From: a virus
Reading direction: 5' to 3' (one strand)
Length of the DNA: 64,000 bases
IMG/VR virus record: IMGVR_UViG_3300020424_000003
Span: 1-64,000 of that record
A program made the translations under genes and the position numbers. This document shows, piece by piece, positions 4,392-52,519 of the stretch. Numbering within the stretch: position 1 is the stretch's first letter; the number at the start of each line of letters is the position of its first letter. Under the pieces are notes generated by a model that searched no databases, was not told the DNA's origin, and saw only the letters and a program-made list of their open reading frames with translations.

Positions 4392-5720
4392 TTATATTTT
4401 ATCGCCATTTGAAAGATTTCGAAAAGTTTTGAATCTTGGAAATCTTAGACTGTAAGTGTCAGAGTCTTGTGATTTTGTTCTTGCATCAGCTCGTATTTCT
4501 ACTAAAGAACCAACGACGTTATCACGGTTAGTCCAGAACTGATCACGTTGATCGTCAGTGAAACCACTTCCACAGTTAAGGTGATAAGTGTATCCATCAT
4601 CTTCTCCTTCTACAATGATTGCGCCAAGTCTACCCTCATTTCGTCCAGTTCCTTCTTCAACTGCAACTACTTTCAATGTAACTTCAATAAATGGTTTGGC
4701 TTTTAACCAAGCATGAGATCGTTTACATTCATATACTGCTTTCTGATCTTTGATCATAACCCCTTCATATCCACCGTCTACAGCCGCTTTATTAAGCTCT
4801 ACAAAGCGATCTTGACCTTCAGGGCTACTTAGATCCACATCTTCCCAGTCCAGTGCTTGTACGTGCTCTAAGGCGTCTTTATTAGCGTCTACCCAATGCC
4901 ATACATATTGGCTTCTTTTGGATTGTTCTACTTCATACTTTCCTTCTAAGAACTTGTCTAAAGGAATCATATCAAACAAATGAAGTACTGCGTCTTTGGC
5001 AACACCTCCACTCTTTCTATGAACCTGTTTCATTAGGTCTTGGAAGTTTGCACTCATTACCTCTCCATCTAAAACTAGATCGTATGGAGCAGGTTTGTCT
5101 TTTAATACTGCTTCTATTTCTGCAATGATGTGACCAAAGTTATGAAACTGCTTACCATTCCTGCTAAACATTTCTACTTTACCATCTTTGATTACTGTTA
5201 ATACTCTTACACCATCAAGTTTAATTTCTATCTGTTTAGGACCAACCATTTTCTTTTCATGGTTAGCTGAATCATGTGCAAGTTGACAAGTAAACACAGG
5301 AACTTTGTATTTGTCAAAGCCATTCTTTTTTGCTACATTGTTTACAGTCTTTTCACTTACACCACAACGTAAATCCTTAATAAGGATACGTCTGTAAAAT
5401 CCATTCCATTGTTCTGCTGTCGCTGAACTCATTACAAGATTAATTGCATCTCTGGCCGCATGACCAGTTAATTCTCTTTTGTTAAGTTTTTCTGCAAGTT
5501 CTAAGAATATCTTCCATTCACAGCCTTGCCCTGAAATAACTGTGTCCTTTGTTGGAACTTGCTTAACGCCGAATGTGTATAATGGATCAAGTGCCATTCT
5601 AACACCATCAAAGAACTCGTCAAGTCCTTCGTTCATTGCATCTAATAATATTGATTCTTTAGCTAGACGTGAATTGTCTGCTTCTAATTTTTCTATGATT
5701 GCCTGTGGTTGTGTTCTCAT
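4392..5720 (-). CDS. lig: ATP-dependent DNA ligase
   Basis: KLDGVR motif I, LDGEV, EGVMIK, WLKAKP, GSGFTD, SLRFPRF. Confidence 0.95.
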   Translation of the reverse strand: MRTQPQAIIEKLEADNSRLAKESILLDAMNEGLDEFFDGVRMALDPLYTFGVKQVPTKDTVISGQGCEWKIFLELAEKLNKRELTGHAARDAINLVMSSATAEQWNGFYRRILIKDLRCGVSEKTVNNVAKKNGFDKYKVPVFTCQLAHDSANHEKKMVGPKQIEIKLDGVRVLTVIKDGKVEMFSRNGKQFHNFGHIIAEIEAVLKDKPAPYDLVLDGEVMSANFQDLMKQVHRKSGGVAKDAVLHLFDMIPLDKFLEGKYEVEQSKRSQYVWHWVDANKDALEHVQALDWEDVDLSSPEGQDRFVELNKAAVDGGYEGVMIKDQKAVYECKRSHAWLKAKPFIEVTLKVVAVEEGTGRNEGRLGAIIVEGEDDGYTYHLNCGSGFTDDQRDQFWTNRDNVVGSLVEIRADARTKSQDSDTYSLRFPRFKTFRNLSNGDKI

Positions 5721-22662: not shown

Positions 22663-23261
22663 TTTTCAACTCCATAGTTAAAAGAAAGTGCTATTCTATT
22701 TGTTTTTGATCTGTTTTGCTTTACTGCGTGTTTGACCCAAGAAGGAAAAACAACAAGCATTCCAGGTTTAGGTGGATATGTTGCCATGGTGCTTGTAATT
22801 GTATTATACTGATTCAAGTTATCAGGTATGTAATACTGTGCGTCATCGCCACGATAAAACTGCAAGTCACCTTGGTTCTCTTCTGGTACATCAATATAGA
22901 ACACACCACTTAACATTCCATCTTGATGGTTGTGTAAAGTATGATAAGCACCTGGTGGATTAATATTAATCCACAAATTTTGAAATACTAATTTAGGAAA
23001 GCCTGCACTCTTAGAACAATAATCTATGGCTTTGTCTAATTCTATTAGCAATTTATTAAATGTAGGTTGAATGTTAGGAGGTAGAAGGTCAACCTTCTCT
23101 ATGCTTCTGCTATGCCAACCACCTTCGTTGCTATTTCCAGCAAGTTCTGGTTCAGCCTTTTGCCATGCTTCTGCGATAGCCTTTAGATCAGCTCTTGGTA
23201 TGTCGTCATTGATTCCTGCAAATACAATACTAGGAAACCAAAGATCTGCTTTCAACTCCAT
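22659..23261 (-). CDS. Putative 2OG-Fe(II) oxygenase (TIGR02466-like)
   Basis: SNEGGWHS, WININPPG..HNH..SGVFY, FPSWVKHAV, RIALSFN. Confidence 0.82.
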   Translation of the reverse strand: MELKADLWFPSIVFAGINDDIPRADLKAIAEAWQKAEPELAGNSNEGGWHSRSIEKVDLLPPNIQPTFNKLLIELDKAIDYCSKSAGFPKLVFQNLWININPPGAYHTLHNHQDGMLSGVFYIDVPEENQGDLQFYRGDDAQYYIPDNLNQYNTITSTMATYPPKPGMLVVFPSWVKHAVKQNRSKTNRIALSFNYGVEK

Positions 23262-23497
23262 TAATAACCTTCCTCTAACATTCTTTTCTGCATCGCTTTT
23301 TTGTGCCTAGCAATACCGGCCGCTTTTTGTCTGGCCTTCTTTGTGCTTGGCTTTTCAAAATATCTTTTGGATTTGTATTCCATCAAGATACCATCTTGCG
23401 ACACTTTTCTTTTGAATTTTCTCAAAGCCTTGTTAAAGTCACCGTTACGAACTGCAACATATAACCCTTCAGGCTTTTTTGTTTTGAACTTCGGCAA
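23261..23497 (-). CDS. rpsU: 30S ribosomal protein bS21 (copy 2, divergent)
   Basis: VAVRNGDFNKALRKFKRKV..GILMEYKSKRYFEKPS. Confidence 0.85.
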   Translation of the reverse strand: MPKFKTKKPEGLYVAVRNGDFNKALRKFKRKVSQDGILMEYKSKRYFEKPSTKKARQKAAGIARHKKAMQKRMLEEGY

Positions 23498-23870
23498 AGT
23501 CTTCTCCTTCTGCTAATTGTCCAACGTCAAAAATTCTACGATTACATAACATATTATAGTGCATAGACTCGGCACTTGTCAAGTAAAAAGTTTTATCATA
23601 AGATAAAATTTTGCCAATAATCCATTTATGGCTGTCAGCGACATTGTCTATATCTAGTATGATGTAATCAGAAGTATTACAAACGTCAAGTAACCAACCC
23701 AAGTCGTTCGATTCTTCGAACAGATATACATTAAGATTCTTACCCAGTTTCTTTGCCATTTCATTAAACTGTTCTTTTGTAGTTGTGCTAGGATATACAA
23801 GTGTGAAACTTAAATTATTATTATACAATTTATCAGGTGAAGTGATAAGATTGAGTACAGGCTGTTTCAT
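23469..23870 (-). CDS. Hypothetical protein
   Basis: ORF; late promoter 5 nt before ATG. Confidence 0.6.
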   Translation of the reverse strand: MKQPVLNLITSPDKLYNNNLSFTLVYPSTTTKEQFNEMAKKLGKNLNVYLFEESNDLGWLLDVCNTSDYIILDIDNVADSHKWIIGKILSYDKTFYLTSAESMHYNMLCNRRIFDVGQLAEGEDFAEVQNKKA

Positions 23871-23945
23871 ATTACTACTTATTGTTTCTGATTTTTTGCC
23901 AAATAGAGTTCTGATTTTGCTCTTGATTTTGAACGTATACTTCTG

Positions 23946-25676
23946 TTAGGTCTGGTCGGAGTCTTCCGGATTGGTTGTCTGGCGTACTTGCTTGTTGCTT
24001 ACCTTTGTTATGTAATTGGTTCCGCTCACCGTTTTTTTTTGAGCTTCGTCTATTTGTTTTAATTCTTCGCCATAAAAAATTCTATTTTTGGTATCAACAT
24101 ACTCTTTATCTTTATCTTTTTCTTTTTGATCTTCTTTTATTGCTTCTTTTTCTGCGGCATCTACCCATTGGTTCCATTTGTCAACATCTTTTACTTCGTC
24201 TAGTATGTCTTCCTTTTTTTCTTCTTTAGGTTCATAGTTCTTGTTGAATTCTTCATACCCTTCTACTTCAGCTGGATCAAATCCATCATTGACTTCTTTT
24301 ATGATCTTTTCTTCAAGCTCTTCTTTCATATCAAGCTCTTTGTCAACAGTCACAGGCTCTTCGGGTAAAGGTTCAAGTTCGTCCTGCATCGTTTCACTGA
24401 ACGACTTTTCTTCACTGTGATCAAGTCCAGGTTCAACTTTGACTTCTGTTGTGTCTGTGGTTACTGCACCCAGTGAACCTGCCACTGCTACTTCTTTAGT
24501 TGGAGTTGGCTCGGGCTCTGGATCGTTAGGTTCGTCTGGATCTGGATCGGACTTTGGGGGCAACTTCCCGCCCTTGTCCTCTCTTACATATTGAAATGTA
24601 TATTGTGAAGCAATTAATAATAATACCGCAAGTGGATCAAATACAAAAATAATAATTATTATTACCCATCTTACAGCCGATTCTAATAATGATTGATTTG
24701 CTTGTTCACCATAGATAAATTCAGCAATATATTTAATTGGTCCTACTTCAGCTTCTAACTTACGATACTCTTTTTCATAACCAAACTTCTCTTCACGTAC
24801 TTGATCAATTACTAATTGTTCTGCATCAATAAAGTTTTCAAGTTCTGTAACACGAGCATCTATGTCTTCAGTTTTTTCATTGGCTTGATTACGTAGATCC
24901 TGTATTCTATCCTGTATTGCTTTGATATCATTTGCATATTTGGCATCTACGGCCGCAAGTGCTTCATTAAGTTTAGCATTTATGTTTCTAATTTCTCTTT
25001 GTGCCGAACTTGCCACTGACAGTTCGTTTGCCTTTGCTTCTTCTACTGCTTTGTCAAACTTGGCACCGCCACCAAAGGATCCTTCAAACCTATCCTTGGC
25101 CGCTTGTATATCTGCTTCTTTACGTTCTTTTGCTTGTTCAATACGTTTGTTCTGTAATTCTATTTGTTTGTCAAAGTCAACACGGACATCATCTTTTTCA
25201 GCTTTTATAAGTGCATTGATTTTATCTAATTCTTTTTGTTCACGATCAATAAGATTATCTACACGGACATCTTCGCCTTTCATTAGGCGATTCATTTCAT
25301 CTGTCCAACGTTCTATTTTACCCTGTGATCTAATTTCCTTGTCATCAAGTGTTTTAATTAAAGCAACTTGTTCTTGGCTCATAGATGTTTGTTCTATGTG
25401 TGCTTTAGATAAGAAACCAAAGATACCCATTGATGTTATAAACATTAACACAATGACTGCTATTGAAAGATAGGTTTTTAACCACCAGGCGGCTCGTGAC
25501 CAATGTCTGTGTAACCATACTGCGGTAACAAGTTTCCCTATTTCTAAAGAAACACCCATGATAATGATTGGAATCACAGCCGCGGCGAATATAGCCGCCA
25601 ATCCTGCCACCGAATAGTATATAGCTACCGCACTAATAGTTAATGCAGATAGAAATGTTAATATTCCTAATAACAT
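23946..25676 (-). CDS. Membrane protein with long coiled coil and acidic tail; probable -1 frameshift extension to 23875
   Basis: N-terminal TMs, EVGPIKYIA/FDPLAV second TM block; A9 run at 24032-24040. Confidence 0.7.
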   Translation of the reverse strand: MLLGILTFLSALTISAVAIYYSVAGLAAIFAAAVIPIIIMGVSLEIGKLVTAVWLHRHWSRAAWWLKTYLSIAVIVLMFITSMGIFGFLSKAHIEQTSMSQEQVALIKTLDDKEIRSQGKIERWTDEMNRLMKGEDVRVDNLIDREQKELDKINALIKAEKDDVRVDFDKQIELQNKRIEQAKERKEADIQAAKDRFEGSFGGGAKFDKAVEEAKANELSVASSAQREIRNINAKLNEALAAVDAKYANDIKAIQDRIQDLRNQANEKTEDIDARVTELENFIDAEQLVIDQVREEKFGYEKEYRKLEAEVGPIKYIAEFIYGEQANQSLLESAVRWVIIIIIFVFDPLAVLLLIASQYTFQYVREDKGGKLPPKSDPDPDEPNDPEPEPTPTKEVAVAGSLGAVTTDTTEVKVEPGLDHSEEKSFSETMQDELEPLPEEPVTVDKELDMKEELEEKIIKEVNDGFDPAEVEGYEEFNKNYEPKEEKKEDILDEVKDVDKWNQWVDAAEKEAIKEDQKEKDKDKEYVDTKNRIFYGEELKQIDEAQKKTVSGTNYITKVSNKQVRQTTNPEDSDQT

Positions 25677-25719
25677 ACTGCTCCCTCTGTATTCTTTGTA
25701 TAACATATTTATCTTAATT

Positions 25720-26163
25720 TTACCTTACAAACCGCCATCCTTGATGACCAGTTTCCCTACAAGCAACCTCTTTAAAGTGTCGTAGTTTACCTTTGTAATT
25801 TAATTTAGATAAAACTGTTCTACAATAACCACTTCCCATAGGATATGTACTTGCAACAAATACTTCACCATTGGTTCCAGTGTCATTATTATACCAACTT
25901 GTTGCTTGGCCAGTTTCATTGTTATCAAGAGCAAAATATATTGCTTGTTCTTGTTTCATTCTATCTTCAGCCGGTAATCTATACCAATGCCATTTAGTAA
26001 GATTAACAATAATACCTACATAACCACTGCTTGGTTGATATGTTGATTGAACACTTGATGTTGTGGTGTCACTAGTATTGTATGTTTGAACGTTCTTTGT
26101 AGAACTACAAGCCCCTAATATACTAAAAAGGGCTAGTAACAATATACCATTTACTAGTTTCAT
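25720..26163 (-). CDS. Lipoprotein, 17-kDa surface antigen (RT0821/Lpp0805)-like
   Basis: LGAC lipobox; ALD..G..SWYN..TG..G, YCR, ACR..GW. Confidence 0.7.
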   Translation of the reverse strand: MKLVNGILLLALFSILGACSSTKNVQTYNTSDTTTSSVQSTYQPSSGYVGIIVNLTKWHWYRLPAEDRMKQEQAIYFALDNNETGQATSWYNNDTGTNGEVFVASTYPMGSGYCRTVLSKLNYKGKLRHFKEVACRETGHQGWRFVR

Positions 26164-26467
26164 AGTCTTTTCCTTGCATTAGACAGGCATAGCCTTTTCT
26201 TTCGACCATCCTGCCATTAATGTTAACACTATACCAATGTTCGCGACATTCCTTTGCTATGCCCATTTTGGGTGGCAATAGCTTTTTGACAGGATCGTCG
26301 CTACATTCTGTGATTTGTGTGCTGTCAACTACACCGTTTTTTTCAATGATTGTTTTGTTAGTATCACAATACTGATGACCGTTTTCTTCTAGTGTTAGCT
26401 TGTTACCTGTGGCACTACAACCTGTAGCTACCATCATCAGAGCTATTATGTATAGAAGATGTTTCAT
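26123..26467 (-). CDS. Lipoprotein
   Basis: ATGC lipobox, four further Cys. Confidence 0.6.
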   Translation of the reverse strand: MKHLLYIIALMMVATGCSATGNKLTLEENGHQYCDTNKTIIEKNGVVDSTQITECSDDPVKKLLPPKMGIAKECREHWYSVNINGRMVERKGYACLMQGKDYETSKWYIVTSPF

Positions 26468-26476
26468 ACGGCTCTC

Positions 26477-27043
26477 CTAGTCGACTTGTTTAGCTGACTT
26501 GTTAATAGAGTTCGTATCAATCTTTACTTGAGAAGCTCTAATACCTTGTGCTTCTGCTACCAATTGATCAACAATCTCCTTATCAAGTTTCAACATTATG
26601 AAATGATGATACTTGCCATTTCTTTTGTACAAGTAACCTTCATTAGATGAATAATGTCTTACAACTGTATCTGTGATCTTGTTAACAACCAATACTTGAG
26701 ACTGTGTAGAAGAAACCAAATTCTCTTCACTGCCACTATCATTATATTCGATTGTTGTTCGCTTGTTCACTGCACCGTTAATTCTATCAGCAATTTTAGT
26801 TTTTGCTAACTGCAATGATTTATCATAAGCCGCTTCTTTAAAGCCACTTACTGCACTACCACAAGCATAGTAGTAGTCTTTAGACCACCAAAACCAACCT
26901 TCAGTTCCAGTGTCCTTACACTTCATATACCAATTAGGTACTACGTCTTGTTGCTTTTCAACGACAGTAGTCATTGTTGAACAAGCTGACATCATTACCG
27001 CCATTGTTGCGACTAATGTCAGTTTTTTAAATGTGCCTTTCAT
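26477..27043 (-). CDS. LPP20-like lipoprotein
   Basis: MSAC lipobox, VPNWY, GSAVS, AKTKIADRING. Confidence 0.6.
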   Translation of the reverse strand: MKGTFKKLTLVATMAVMMSACSTMTTVVEKQQDVVPNWYMKCKDTGTEGWFWWSKDYYYACGSAVSGFKEAAYDKSLQLAKTKIADRINGAVNKRTTIEYNDSGSEENLVSSTQSQVLVVNKITDTVVRHYSSNEGYLYKRNGKYHHFIMLKLDKEIVDQLVAEAQGIRASQVKIDTNSINKSAKQVD

Positions 27044-27125
27044 TAAAGCCTCCATAAGTTTTTCTTCATTAAGTTTATATAATAGCACCGAAACAATCAA
27101 ATGTCAATGATAATTTTGCCAAAAG

Positions 27126-28780: not shown

Positions 28781-28844
28781 GTCACTGTTCCTTGTGTTGT
28801 GATAAAAACTAGCTTTATTATATAGTCATTTAATGAAGATGTCA

Positions 28845-29146
28845 AGTGCAACTTTTCTGTTGCTAGGTAAGTTGCCAACCCCGAGCGATTATGCCGCTAG
28901 GGCAAAATCCTCATTTACAACGGATTTCTGTTTACCGAAGTTAACAAAAGTCACGTTGTTTAGTGCATTATCGTTTGCATCTATACGTTTGTTCGCGTTA
29001 ACCGAGCTTACATCCGGACAGTCTCCTTCAACCTTAACAAGCCAATCGATCCTAATTCCACCCCGTCGGGGGTATATTGAATTGGTGGAGTGGCCGGGAA
29101 TTGCACCCGGGTCTTGCTCTTGTGACATACGTTGCTATCATCAATT
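28845..29146 (-). ncRNA. ssrA: Circularly permuted (two-piece) tmRNA; outer ends approximate
   Basis: T-arm/acceptor piece ...CCACTCCACCA (ends 29083) precedes GGGGTGG 5' end (29064); G3:U pair; tag ORF 28978-28889 ANDN...FALAA. Confidence 0.9.
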
Positions 29147-29215
29147 GCTATGTATTTATAGCCTTATTTGTATAGTATGCACTTAATTGTGATAACTAAT
29201 GTCAAAGGATTAACA

Positions 29216-40720: not shown

Positions 40721-41008
40721 TTAAAGAGCGGCGTTGGTTGCTCTTTTTGCCATTTGGTCGACTGTTGCATCTGCTGGATCAGTAGTTTTAGTCATTGGCT
40801 CTTCACTGTCAGCTTCTTGTTTTGTGGTTAATGTTACACCTTTGTCATCAAAATTTTTGACAAGTTTTTGAACGTCTGGATTGGCATCATATATTTGTTT
40901 GAAGCCATCATAGTCAAACTGTTGTAGATCCATGTTGGTCATTATTTGATTGAGTGCTTCAAAAGACAGATAGGCAGACTGACCTTTACTGTCAGCACTA
41001 CCTATCAT
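40721..41008 (-). CDS. Hypothetical protein; probably the -1 frameshift extension of the upstream gene
   Basis: Frame is open upstream of the ATG to the A9 run at 41078-41086; no clear SD. Confidence 0.55.
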   Translation of the reverse strand: MIGSADSKGQSAYLSFEALNQIMTNMDLQQFDYDGFKQIYDANPDVQKLVKNFDDKGVTLTTKQEADSEEPMTKTTDPADATVDQMAKRATNAAL

Positions 41009-41055
41009 ATTTCTAAATGTTGAGATTAACGCCTCTTTTGAATTTGACGCTTCAG

Positions 41056-42189
41056 TTACTTTGGTTCTTGTGGAGCCTTTTTTTTTGAGTCAGTTAATAA
41101 CTGACCTAATCTTCTGCTACGTTCAACGGATTCTCGTTTTTCCCTGTCCGCTACCTCTTCGCCTCCTGTTGCTGGTTCACTTGCTCCGAACTCATCATCA
41201 GTTGCTACTGGTTCAGCACCGGCCTCCTGGTCAACTGTTGGTTCCATTGGTTCCTCAGCTGGAGCTTCTGGATCTGCACCCATTGGCTCTGGAGCACCTT
41301 CGCCTGTTACGATGGCTACGCCACCTGTTAGTGCTTCTCTTGTAGTTTCAAAAACTGTATATAAATTTTCAAGTGCTGGTTTTACAGTATTGATGAACTC
41401 TTCGCTTTTCTCTGATCCTAATTCATCTCTGATCTTATCGCCTAGTTCAAGCATTGATTCAGTTTGCATTTCTGCTGTATCTTCCATCCAGCCTGTGAGT
41501 CTATCCACCATGTCCTTTGCGGCCATAACTAATGTTGCTTTATCTTCTTCACCCTCTATTAATTTAATGTAGCCTTCTAATGCTTCATTCATTTCTTTCT
41601 TGCAATCTTTGATTAACTGCTTTAATTTGTCTTTGTCTGCATCTGGGTGCATTTTCAACATTTCTGCTTCGGACATTCCATCCTTGCACATTTTCATTAC
41701 GTGTGCTTTTGATGGCATTTTACCTTTTTCTTCTTTTTCTTTGATGTCTTTAGCTTCGTCGTCTTTACCTTGCTTTTTAAGTATTGCTTTCTTTAAGCCT
41801 GCTGGTAATTTTTCTTGACCTTTTGTTAAATCTTCATCAGCTACATCTTCTTTTTTAGCTTCTTTATCCTTAACAGCCTTTTTCATTGGCTCTTTCTTAT
41901 CGCCATCACCATCTATATCGATATAGTCTGGTTTAGCTTTAGCTCTTTCTTCAATTTCTCTGTTGATTACGTCTAGGAACATTTTGCCTTTTTGGTAGGC
42001 ATCGCTTGTATGAACTGTTTCGAAACTTTCGTTGGTTTCAACTTGACTTAATTGTGTTCTAAGTTTGTTACGAGCATCTTCAAGTTGCTCATTAGTGAAA
42101 TCGTTCAAACGAAGTTTGGTTCCGAATGTTTTTGCCAATGACTCATTTAAGTCTTCAGCTGATGTTATTTTAAGTTCATTTAGTTTCAT
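41056..42189 (-). CDS. Acidic probable internal head/scaffold-like protein
   Basis: MKLNEL start, several L/I-x-E sites, DIDGDGD motif, charged helical composition. Confidence 0.5.
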   Translation of the reverse strand: MKLNELKITSAEDLNESLAKTFGTKLRLNDFTNEQLEDARNKLRTQLSQVETNESFETVHTSDAYQKGKMFLDVINREIEERAKAKPDYIDIDGDGDKKEPMKKAVKDKEAKKEDVADEDLTKGQEKLPAGLKKAILKKQGKDDEAKDIKEKEEKGKMPSKAHVMKMCKDGMSEAEMLKMHPDADKDKLKQLIKDCKKEMNEALEGYIKLIEGEEDKATLVMAAKDMVDRLTGWMEDTAEMQTESMLELGDKIRDELGSEKSEEFINTVKPALENLYTVFETTREALTGGVAIVTGEGAPEPMGADPEAPAEEPMEPTVDQEAGAEPVATDDEFGASEPATGGEEVADREKRESVERSRRLGQLLTDSKKKAPQEPK

Positions 42190-52258: not shown

Positions 52259-52519
52259 ATGCTTATTATTAAACGTTTATTAAACTGGTGTGAGATTGTG
52301 GGCTATGCGAAAGCATCAGCAGAACTATCACGTCAGGGCTTTCATGCTGAAGCAAAGGCTTTGATGCTGGAGAAGACAAAACTTCAAGGCAGAAAAGAAA
52401 GAGCTCTAGTAAGATTAGAAGCCAAAAAAAAATTTAAAGCAGGGTATGATCCTGCCAATCACTACATGAGAGGCAAGTCCGTTGCAACCTGGAGTGGCAA
52501 GAAAGGTATGGTAGCTTAA
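52259..52519 (+). CDS. Small hypothetical protein
   Basis: GYAKASAELSRQGFH.EAKALM; contains an A9 run. Confidence 0.6.
   Translation: MLIIKRLLNWCEIVGYAKASAELSRQGFHAEAKALMLEKTKLQGRKERALVRLEAKKKFKAGYDPANHYMRGKSVATWSGKKGMVA

Follow-up and report, generated by a model that had tools for sequence, protein, structure and literature searches.

A run of nine adenines near the 3' end of a phage membrane-protein gene is, judging by comparison with related sequences, very probably a genuine programmed recoding site that provides this protein with alternative C-terminal tails. The run (A9) lies on the minus strand of a 64,000-nt window, the stretch of DNA analysed here, which comprises positions 1 to 64,000 of IMG/VR record IMGVR_UViG_3300020424_000003 and to which all coordinates refer. 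The complete viral record measures 80.7 kb and is rated as about 22% complete by CheckV, and is therefore a piece of a large phage. In the proposed mechanism most expression would read frame 0 and end at 23946, yielding a protein with an N-Y-I-T-K...K-Q-V-R tail, and a set fraction would leave frame 0 at A9 and read 52 codons in the -1 frame, so that the shifted product would exchange the frame-0 tail for a loose linker followed by a terminal motif of the form L-T-E-V..Y-x-Q-N-x-E-Q..S-I-W. In this manner one gene would supply two isoforms, both anchored in the membrane and each ending in an interaction motif that the other lacks, and we infer that both are made, at a ratio that the rate of slippage would fix. 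Features of the site and of the other A9 runs are collected in Table 1.

Table 1. Recoding site, surrounding reading frames and further A9 runs (window coordinates).
Feature	Position	Strand	Detail
Frame-0 gene, membrane protein, 586 aa	23946..25706	minus	from the ORF list
A9 shift site	24032..24040	minus	nine A's (24040-24032); frame-0 codons GCT CAA AAA AAA ACG
Frame-0 stop TAA	23948-23946	minus	
Overlap segment, A9 to frame-0 stop	23949..24031	minus	codes for the conserved frame-0 tail; -1 frame open
-1-frame tail, 52 codons + TAG	23875..24033	minus	from translation
-1-frame first stop TAG	23877-23875	minus	
-1-frame second in-frame stop TAA	23872..23874	minus	1 nt ahead of the next gene's ATG
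Downstream gene, 133 aa	23469..23870	minus	ATG at 23870
Conserved C-terminal motif of the -1 product	23878..23949	minus	first codon overlaps the frame-0 stop
Second A9	41086-41078	minus	TCA AAA AAA AAG; in 377-aa gene 41056..42189; -1 frame stretch 40721-41089
Third and last A9	52424-52432	plus	in 86-aa ORF 52259..52519; 87 nt before the stop

The arrangement set out in the earlier note is borne out by the sequence: A9 at 24040-24032 stands within the codons GCT CAA AAA AAA ACG, frame 0 closes with a stop ending at 23946, and the -1 frame, encoding the peptide that the note had read there, runs to the double stop TAG TAA (23877-23872) directly ahead of the ATG at 23870. Within A9 a slippery heptamer, A_AAA_AAA (24039-24033), is in phase with frame 0 in the X_XXY_YYZ manner. 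The -1-frame tail (23875..24033) is devoid of the start codons ATG, GTG and TTG, and the +1 frame closes at once after A9. The calculated trans-frame product comprises 558 + 52 = 610 aa; tryptic peptides expected from its -1-frame part include QQASTPDNQSGR and one extending from L-R-P-D-L-T-E-V to the S-I-W-Q-K motif, and the frame-0 protein ends in a 28-residue tail 3' of A9. All relatives align from the second methionine (M-L-L-G-I-L-T-F...) and not from the ORF start at 25706 (alignment A1); translation probably begins at the ATG at 25676, in which case the isoforms would measure 576 and 600 aa. As a sequence feature A9 is not over-represented, with three runs observed in the window against 7.9 +/- 3.9 in shuffled sequences and only three in the whole 80.7-kb record. 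It is the position and conservation of A9, and not the number of such runs, that lie far beyond chance.

Relatives were collected from IMG/VR by scans that used the protein and alignments A1, A3 and A4 as queries and gave more than 570 matches, and 83 unique complete loci were examined. A run of exactly nine A's is present in about 28 of these 83, with differing flanks and codon phases, or in 28 of about 40 loci of the shift type, where it occurs family-wide in codon phases 0, 1 and 2. In the close subfamily, whose most distant members are about 58% identical in protein, every one of the 20 loci has A9 unchanged; the run sits 59-95 nt before the frame-0 stop and occupies two codon phases, and it is framed by variable sequence both 5' (ctc, ttc, atc, tcc, att) and 3' (cgg, ctc, gag, ggg, gac, ccc, gaa, gga). 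This invariance extends to the first and ninth A and is found despite a synonymous divergence of about 0.6, and within one subfamily it is partly inherited, not wholly independent. Codon choice at the site is equally rigid: Gln-Lys-Lys is always written CAA AAA AAA, and elsewhere in the same genes, in which AAA accounts for 66% of lysine codons, Lys-Lys appears as AAA-AAA in only 13 of 51 cases. The earlier note had named the joint conservation of the A-run and the -1-frame peptide as a check of its proposal, and homologues indeed keep both the A-run and a peptide of the form Y.QN.EQ..S.W.

Selection acting on the individual frames was followed by Nei-Gojobori proportions on codon alignments, taken frame by frame. 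Between A9 and the frame-0 stop, pN/pS is 0.38-0.48 in frame 0, about 0.9-1.1 in the -1 frame and about 1.0-1.1 in the +1 frame; from the frame-0 stop to the -1 stop the corresponding values are about 1, 0.30-0.36 and 1.0-1.6. A -1-frame ratio of 0.30-0.36 against about 1 otherwise establishes that the gap before the next gene codes for protein in the -1 frame. The frame-0 tail, of the N-Y-I-T-K..N-K-Q-V-R type, is likewise conserved and appears to be functional; since it is conserved in its own right, the two tails are mutually exclusive alternatives. Thus the earlier suggestion of a slip-made second C-terminus filling the gap draws support from both pN/pS and conservation, with the refinement that the conserved -1 peptide lies 3' of the frame-0 stop and that the overlap is selected in frame 0 only. 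There, the -1 reading appears to be a poorly conserved linker that must merely be free of stops. None of the A9 loci has the -1 frame interrupted between A9 and its terminal stop, which lies at the next gene or shortly before it. No ATG, GTG or TTG precedes the motif in this frame in 16 of 20 loci, and in six loci the frame opens just 5-17 nt upstream of A9. Without its own start codon and with so late an opening, the -1 frame is therefore entered only from frame 0, and the point of entry is bracketed onto A9.

The motif reads L-T-E-V ... Y-x-Q-N-x-E-Q ... S-[ILV]-[WF]-x-[KR]-[ILV], and in close-subfamily loci the -1 frame ends in Y-x-Q-N-x-E-Q-(3-4 residues)-S/T-[ILV]-[WF], often after L-T-E-V. 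Four loci lacking A9 at this position (L003, L005, L079, L085) carry the same motif in frame 0, and in L003 it directly follows a frame-0-type tail within one polypeptide. A sister subfamily has a different extension of 100 residues ('G-D-L-F-V-R-V-D' type), which eight unique loci carry in frame 0 and ten place behind a shift site. In several loci the gene contains an extra A9, located 280-700 nt 5' of its stop (4311-4319 in L001/L002, 4438-4446 in L005, 4410-4418 in L079, 4457-4465 in L085); the alternative frames close quickly in L005 and L085, and a slip at this upstream run would give truncated forms. In the window itself an in-phase A_AAA_AAG (GAA GAA AAA AAG) occurs at 24214-24220 on the minus strand, 272 nt before the stop of the membrane-protein gene, and is probably incidental, because the 83%-identical locus L008 has not kept it.

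It could be argued that the true run is A10 or A8, by sequencing or assembly error or by a recent frameshift mutation, and that only one protein is made. Homopolymers are prone to error, and in two relatives (L071, L078) the run is indeed A10 and frame 0 encodes the motif, but about 28 unique IMG/VR assemblies, drawn from many samples, contain A9, as do Logan contigs of other studies, and the purifying selection on the frame-0 tail 3' of A9 (pN/pS 0.38-0.48) is unexpected for an error or a pseudogene, leaving this explanation scarcely credible. Specifically, sixteen Logan runs from 13 studies contained at least half of the sampled words, and contigs of four were compared. One DNA run covers the stretch from end to end, free of indels and differing at one base; two RNA-library runs contain a variant at about 98% in which A9 is intact and the only indels, all multiples of 3, are of 6, 6 and 15 nt; and the contigs of run X13 break around 23938-24061 and are uninformative at the site. 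As independent DNA and RNA-library contigs read A9, an assembly error is excluded; the run length of ten that the earlier note had feared is not what independent assemblies contain at the contig level. A reading of A9 in RNA-library contigs also means that any slipped form is in the minority, or that DNA was carried over, and contigs hide minority A10 transcripts. Another possibility is that the stretch 3' of the frame-0 stop is not reached from A9, and represents a separate small ORF, a nucleotide element serving the next gene, or the outcome of a shift at the frame-0 stop that would place both motifs in one protein. It would accommodate the -1 frame being free of amino-acid constraint between A9 and the frame-0 stop, as well as the single polypeptide of L003 with both motifs. 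However, a separate ORF would have to do without a start codon in 16 of the 20 loci, and a non-coding element is contradicted by a pN/pS of 0.3 in one frame only; the gap has no Rfam, promoter or terminator match, slippery sequence is absent near the frame-0 stop, L-T-E-V begins upstream of that stop, and every locus has the -1 frame open from A9 on, often with a stop closely preceding the run. Taken with these observations, an origin other than A9 is highly improbable. A shift at the frame-0 stop had been suspected, since the window and L008 differ 3' of A9 mostly by frame-0-synonymous changes, and was dropped after the wider comparison yielded the pN/pS, start-codon and opening data.

Given recoding at A9, the molecular event itself can be assigned with less assurance, and for the A9 subfamily slippage of the RNA polymerase is modestly favoured as the main route. 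A nine-A run would fill the entire RNA-DNA hybrid and the polymerase would add one A, after which normal reading of the A10 mRNA would follow what in the DNA is the -1 frame; the ribosome, by a tandem slip of -1 on the in-phase A_AAA_AAA, would yield an identical protein and may contribute. Several lines of evidence underlie the preference for the polymerase: the strict length of nine in all three phases, the absence of RNA structure, a lineage in which A10 goes with exchanged frames, the second A9 gene, and the statement in the review PMC5009743 that nine A/T in a row are enough for efficient slippage by bacterial RNA polymerase. The nine A's at 24032-24040 reach the homopolymer length (about nine or more A/T) associated with transcriptional slippage, and this length is conserved regardless of phase and flanks, A9 being found in phases 0, 1 and 2; the threshold is the one given in PMC5009743. 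A search for conserved RNA structure 3' of A9 by RNAalifold on 17 loci returned 0 pairs, an unusually stable structure 3' of A9 is also absent in the window (fold z = -0.59), and neither was an SD-like sequence seen upstream of A9 in the window, leaving the site with no recognizable stimulatory element. Such elements are common but not obligatory at -1 frameshift sites. The independently assembled loci L071 (A10 at 4834-4843) and L078 (4822-4831) have the motif tail in frame 0 and retain a frame-0-type tail (..F-I-M-R..Q-T-R-I-K..) in the +1 frame, so that both tails are encoded. To pass from one tail to the other, such swapped frames require -1 nt or +2 nt, which a ribosomal slip of -1 does not provide, and by its sequence their A10 would be a swapped-polarity form of the same dual coding. 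In L052 the run is A8 with the extension in the +1 frame.

A purely ribosomal -1 frameshift, in which the P- and A-site Lys-tRNAs slip one base on 24039-24033, the mRNA stays A9 and the same two isoforms result, is less probable but retains a considerable share of our expectation. The heptamer is in X_XXY_YYZ phase, any A9 contains an in-phase A_AAA_AAA, and the RNA-library contigs read A9. Further support comes from the sister 'GDLF' subfamily, where all nine unique loci have an in-phase X_XXY_YYZ heptamer 8-19 nt ahead of the stop (A_AAA_AAG in four, A_AAA_AAA in two, and A_AAA_AAC, A_AAA_AAT and C_CCA_AAG in one each); the non-homopolymeric in-phase C_CCA_AAG is beyond polymerase slippage to explain and therefore points to ribosomal -1 frameshifting in the distant subfamilies. 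For the A9 loci, in contrast, seven bases would suffice the ribosome, yet the first and ninth A are invariant and AAG is never the third heptamer codon in phase-1 loci. The missing stimulatory structure 3' of A9 likewise speaks against a ribosomal event, the swapped frames of the L071/L078 A10 and the A8/+1 arrangement of L052 do not match a -1 slip, and the exact length of nine recurs in a second gene.

Recoding of this type is known in kind, and the gene family provides a new, well-supported example outside tail chaperones, dnaX and IS elements; no description of this A9 site or of recoding in this gene family was found in the literature. In E. coli, the tau and gamma products of dnaX arise by -1 ribosomal frameshifting at A_AAA_AAG. 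Transcriptional slippage at a 9-nt A/T run serves the dnaX gene of Thermus thermophilus (PMC5009743). The phage gene shares with dnaX the production of two products differing at the C-terminus from one gene, the use of the same signals (A9 or A_AAA_AAR), and homologous genes of different lineages that appear to rely on either mechanism, as PMC5009743 describes for dnaX. It differs in that the phage membrane coiled-coil protein is unrelated to dnaX, its shifted product is the longer one, conserved motifs exist on both tails, and no internal SD or stem-loop stimulators were found. The lambda G/GT system is similar in that a phage gene shifts to -1 close to its 3' end, the shift being conserved and presumably leading to a minor product with an added C-terminal binding module, and in the retention of recoding across very divergent sequences. 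Unlike G/GT, the frame-0 product here has its own conserved tail, making the two tails alternative modules and not a base form and its extension. G/GT is a small chaperone gene located between the tail tube and tape-measure genes, whereas the gene described here, which in position, size and sequence is no tail chaperone, encodes a 586-aa multi-pass membrane protein without PHROG or Pfam chaperone match, and is neighboured by lipoprotein genes, the 133-aa ORF and bS21. A third relevant system is that of the Shigella flexneri mxiE and spa genes, in which transcriptional slippage occurs at runs of 8-10 A or T. Slippage in S. flexneri is also mentioned in PMC5009743. The resemblance is in homopolymer-length-dependent slippage in several genes of one system, A9 being found here in at least two genes, but the Shigella runs join two ORFs into a sole functional product, while here both products seem functional.

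The membrane protein is composed of N-terminal transmembrane helices, about 230 aa of coiled coil, a single further transmembrane helix and an acidic tail. Its only family match is a weak, sub-threshold one to Tetraspanin, mirroring the four-helix topology; PHROGs and NCBIfam gave no match, and the ESM Atlas only viral entries labelled 'hypothetical protein'. Neither the 133-aa neighbour nor the -1 extensions have a match in Pfam, PHROGs, NCBIfam or the ESM Atlas, and a mediocre AlphaFold2 model of the sister-subfamily -1 extension (pLDDT 68; four strands and three helices) is without a PDB match at E <= 0.001. The positive-inside rule predicts a cytoplasmic location for the H-R-H-W-S-R loop and for the stretch R-E-D-K-G-G-K that follows the last helix. 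On this prediction the coiled coil would lie in the periplasm, the C-terminal region would be cytoplasmic, and the protein would span the envelope and offer one or the other tail as a docking motif on the cytoplasmic side. An obvious first candidate for a partner of the tails is the syntenic 133-aa neighbour, a homologue of which ('..I[TS]PPD.L.N..') follows in nearly all loci, with the -1 frame ending at or just before its start.

Directly upstream of the membrane-protein gene are three ORFs with lipoprotein-like signal peptides (147, 114 and 207 aa; 25720-27100, minus strand), and in Pelagibacter phage Mosig the homologue adjoins a putative glucosaminidase, a context that suggests a cell-envelope module. 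Mosig is the nearest named relative, and its homologue is short and without the recoding region; a tblastn search of cultured phages with the 53-residue -1 stretch (window:23878-24036) gave no match. Two genes downstream of the recoding site lies a phage bS21 gene (23261-23497, minus strand; Pfam PF01165, E = 5.7e-16). ARAGORN further identified a permuted tmRNA at 28798-29179 (minus strand) with a long tag ending in L-A-A, as well as genes for tRNA-Arg, Thr, Asp, Ala, Gly and Trp, and no tRNA-Lys gene in the window.

On a broader view, it is conceivable, and offered here tentatively, that A9 recoding is a general expression strategy of an abundant uncultured marine giant-phage clade, used in at least two unrelated genes, and that the membrane-protein homologues switch among A9 slippage, ribosomal heptamers (A_AAA_AAG, C_CCA_AAG), fixed in-frame fusions and the swapped-polarity A10. 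If this is true, the family would form a natural series, with more variety than dnaX, in which to study the replacement of one mechanism by another and the setting of isoform ratios, and translation and transcription factors of the phage itself might tune the ratio. The family does hold lineages with A9, with classic heptamers and with no shift side by side. Two exclusive conserved tails imply one membrane-anchored rod coupled to two different partners in a fixed ratio. The 52-residue tail here, like extensions of 70-125 residues in relatives, escapes gene callers, and a conserved part of a widespread marine-phage protein is consequently missing from protein databases. Peptides from the tails offer a concrete handle on a protein conserved in hundreds of marine viral contigs.

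The second A9 of the record belongs to a gene unrelated to the membrane protein, a scaffold-like head gene, in which the run lies seven codons before the stop and the -1 frame continues for about 110 codons. Among 60 unique IMG/VR relatives of this gene, 49 have A9 and four A10, and each of these carries a -1 extension of 97 codons or more; in the 49 the run precedes a -1 extension of 100-128 codons. At the third A9 the -1 frame closes, by reading of the sequence, after about 13 codons.
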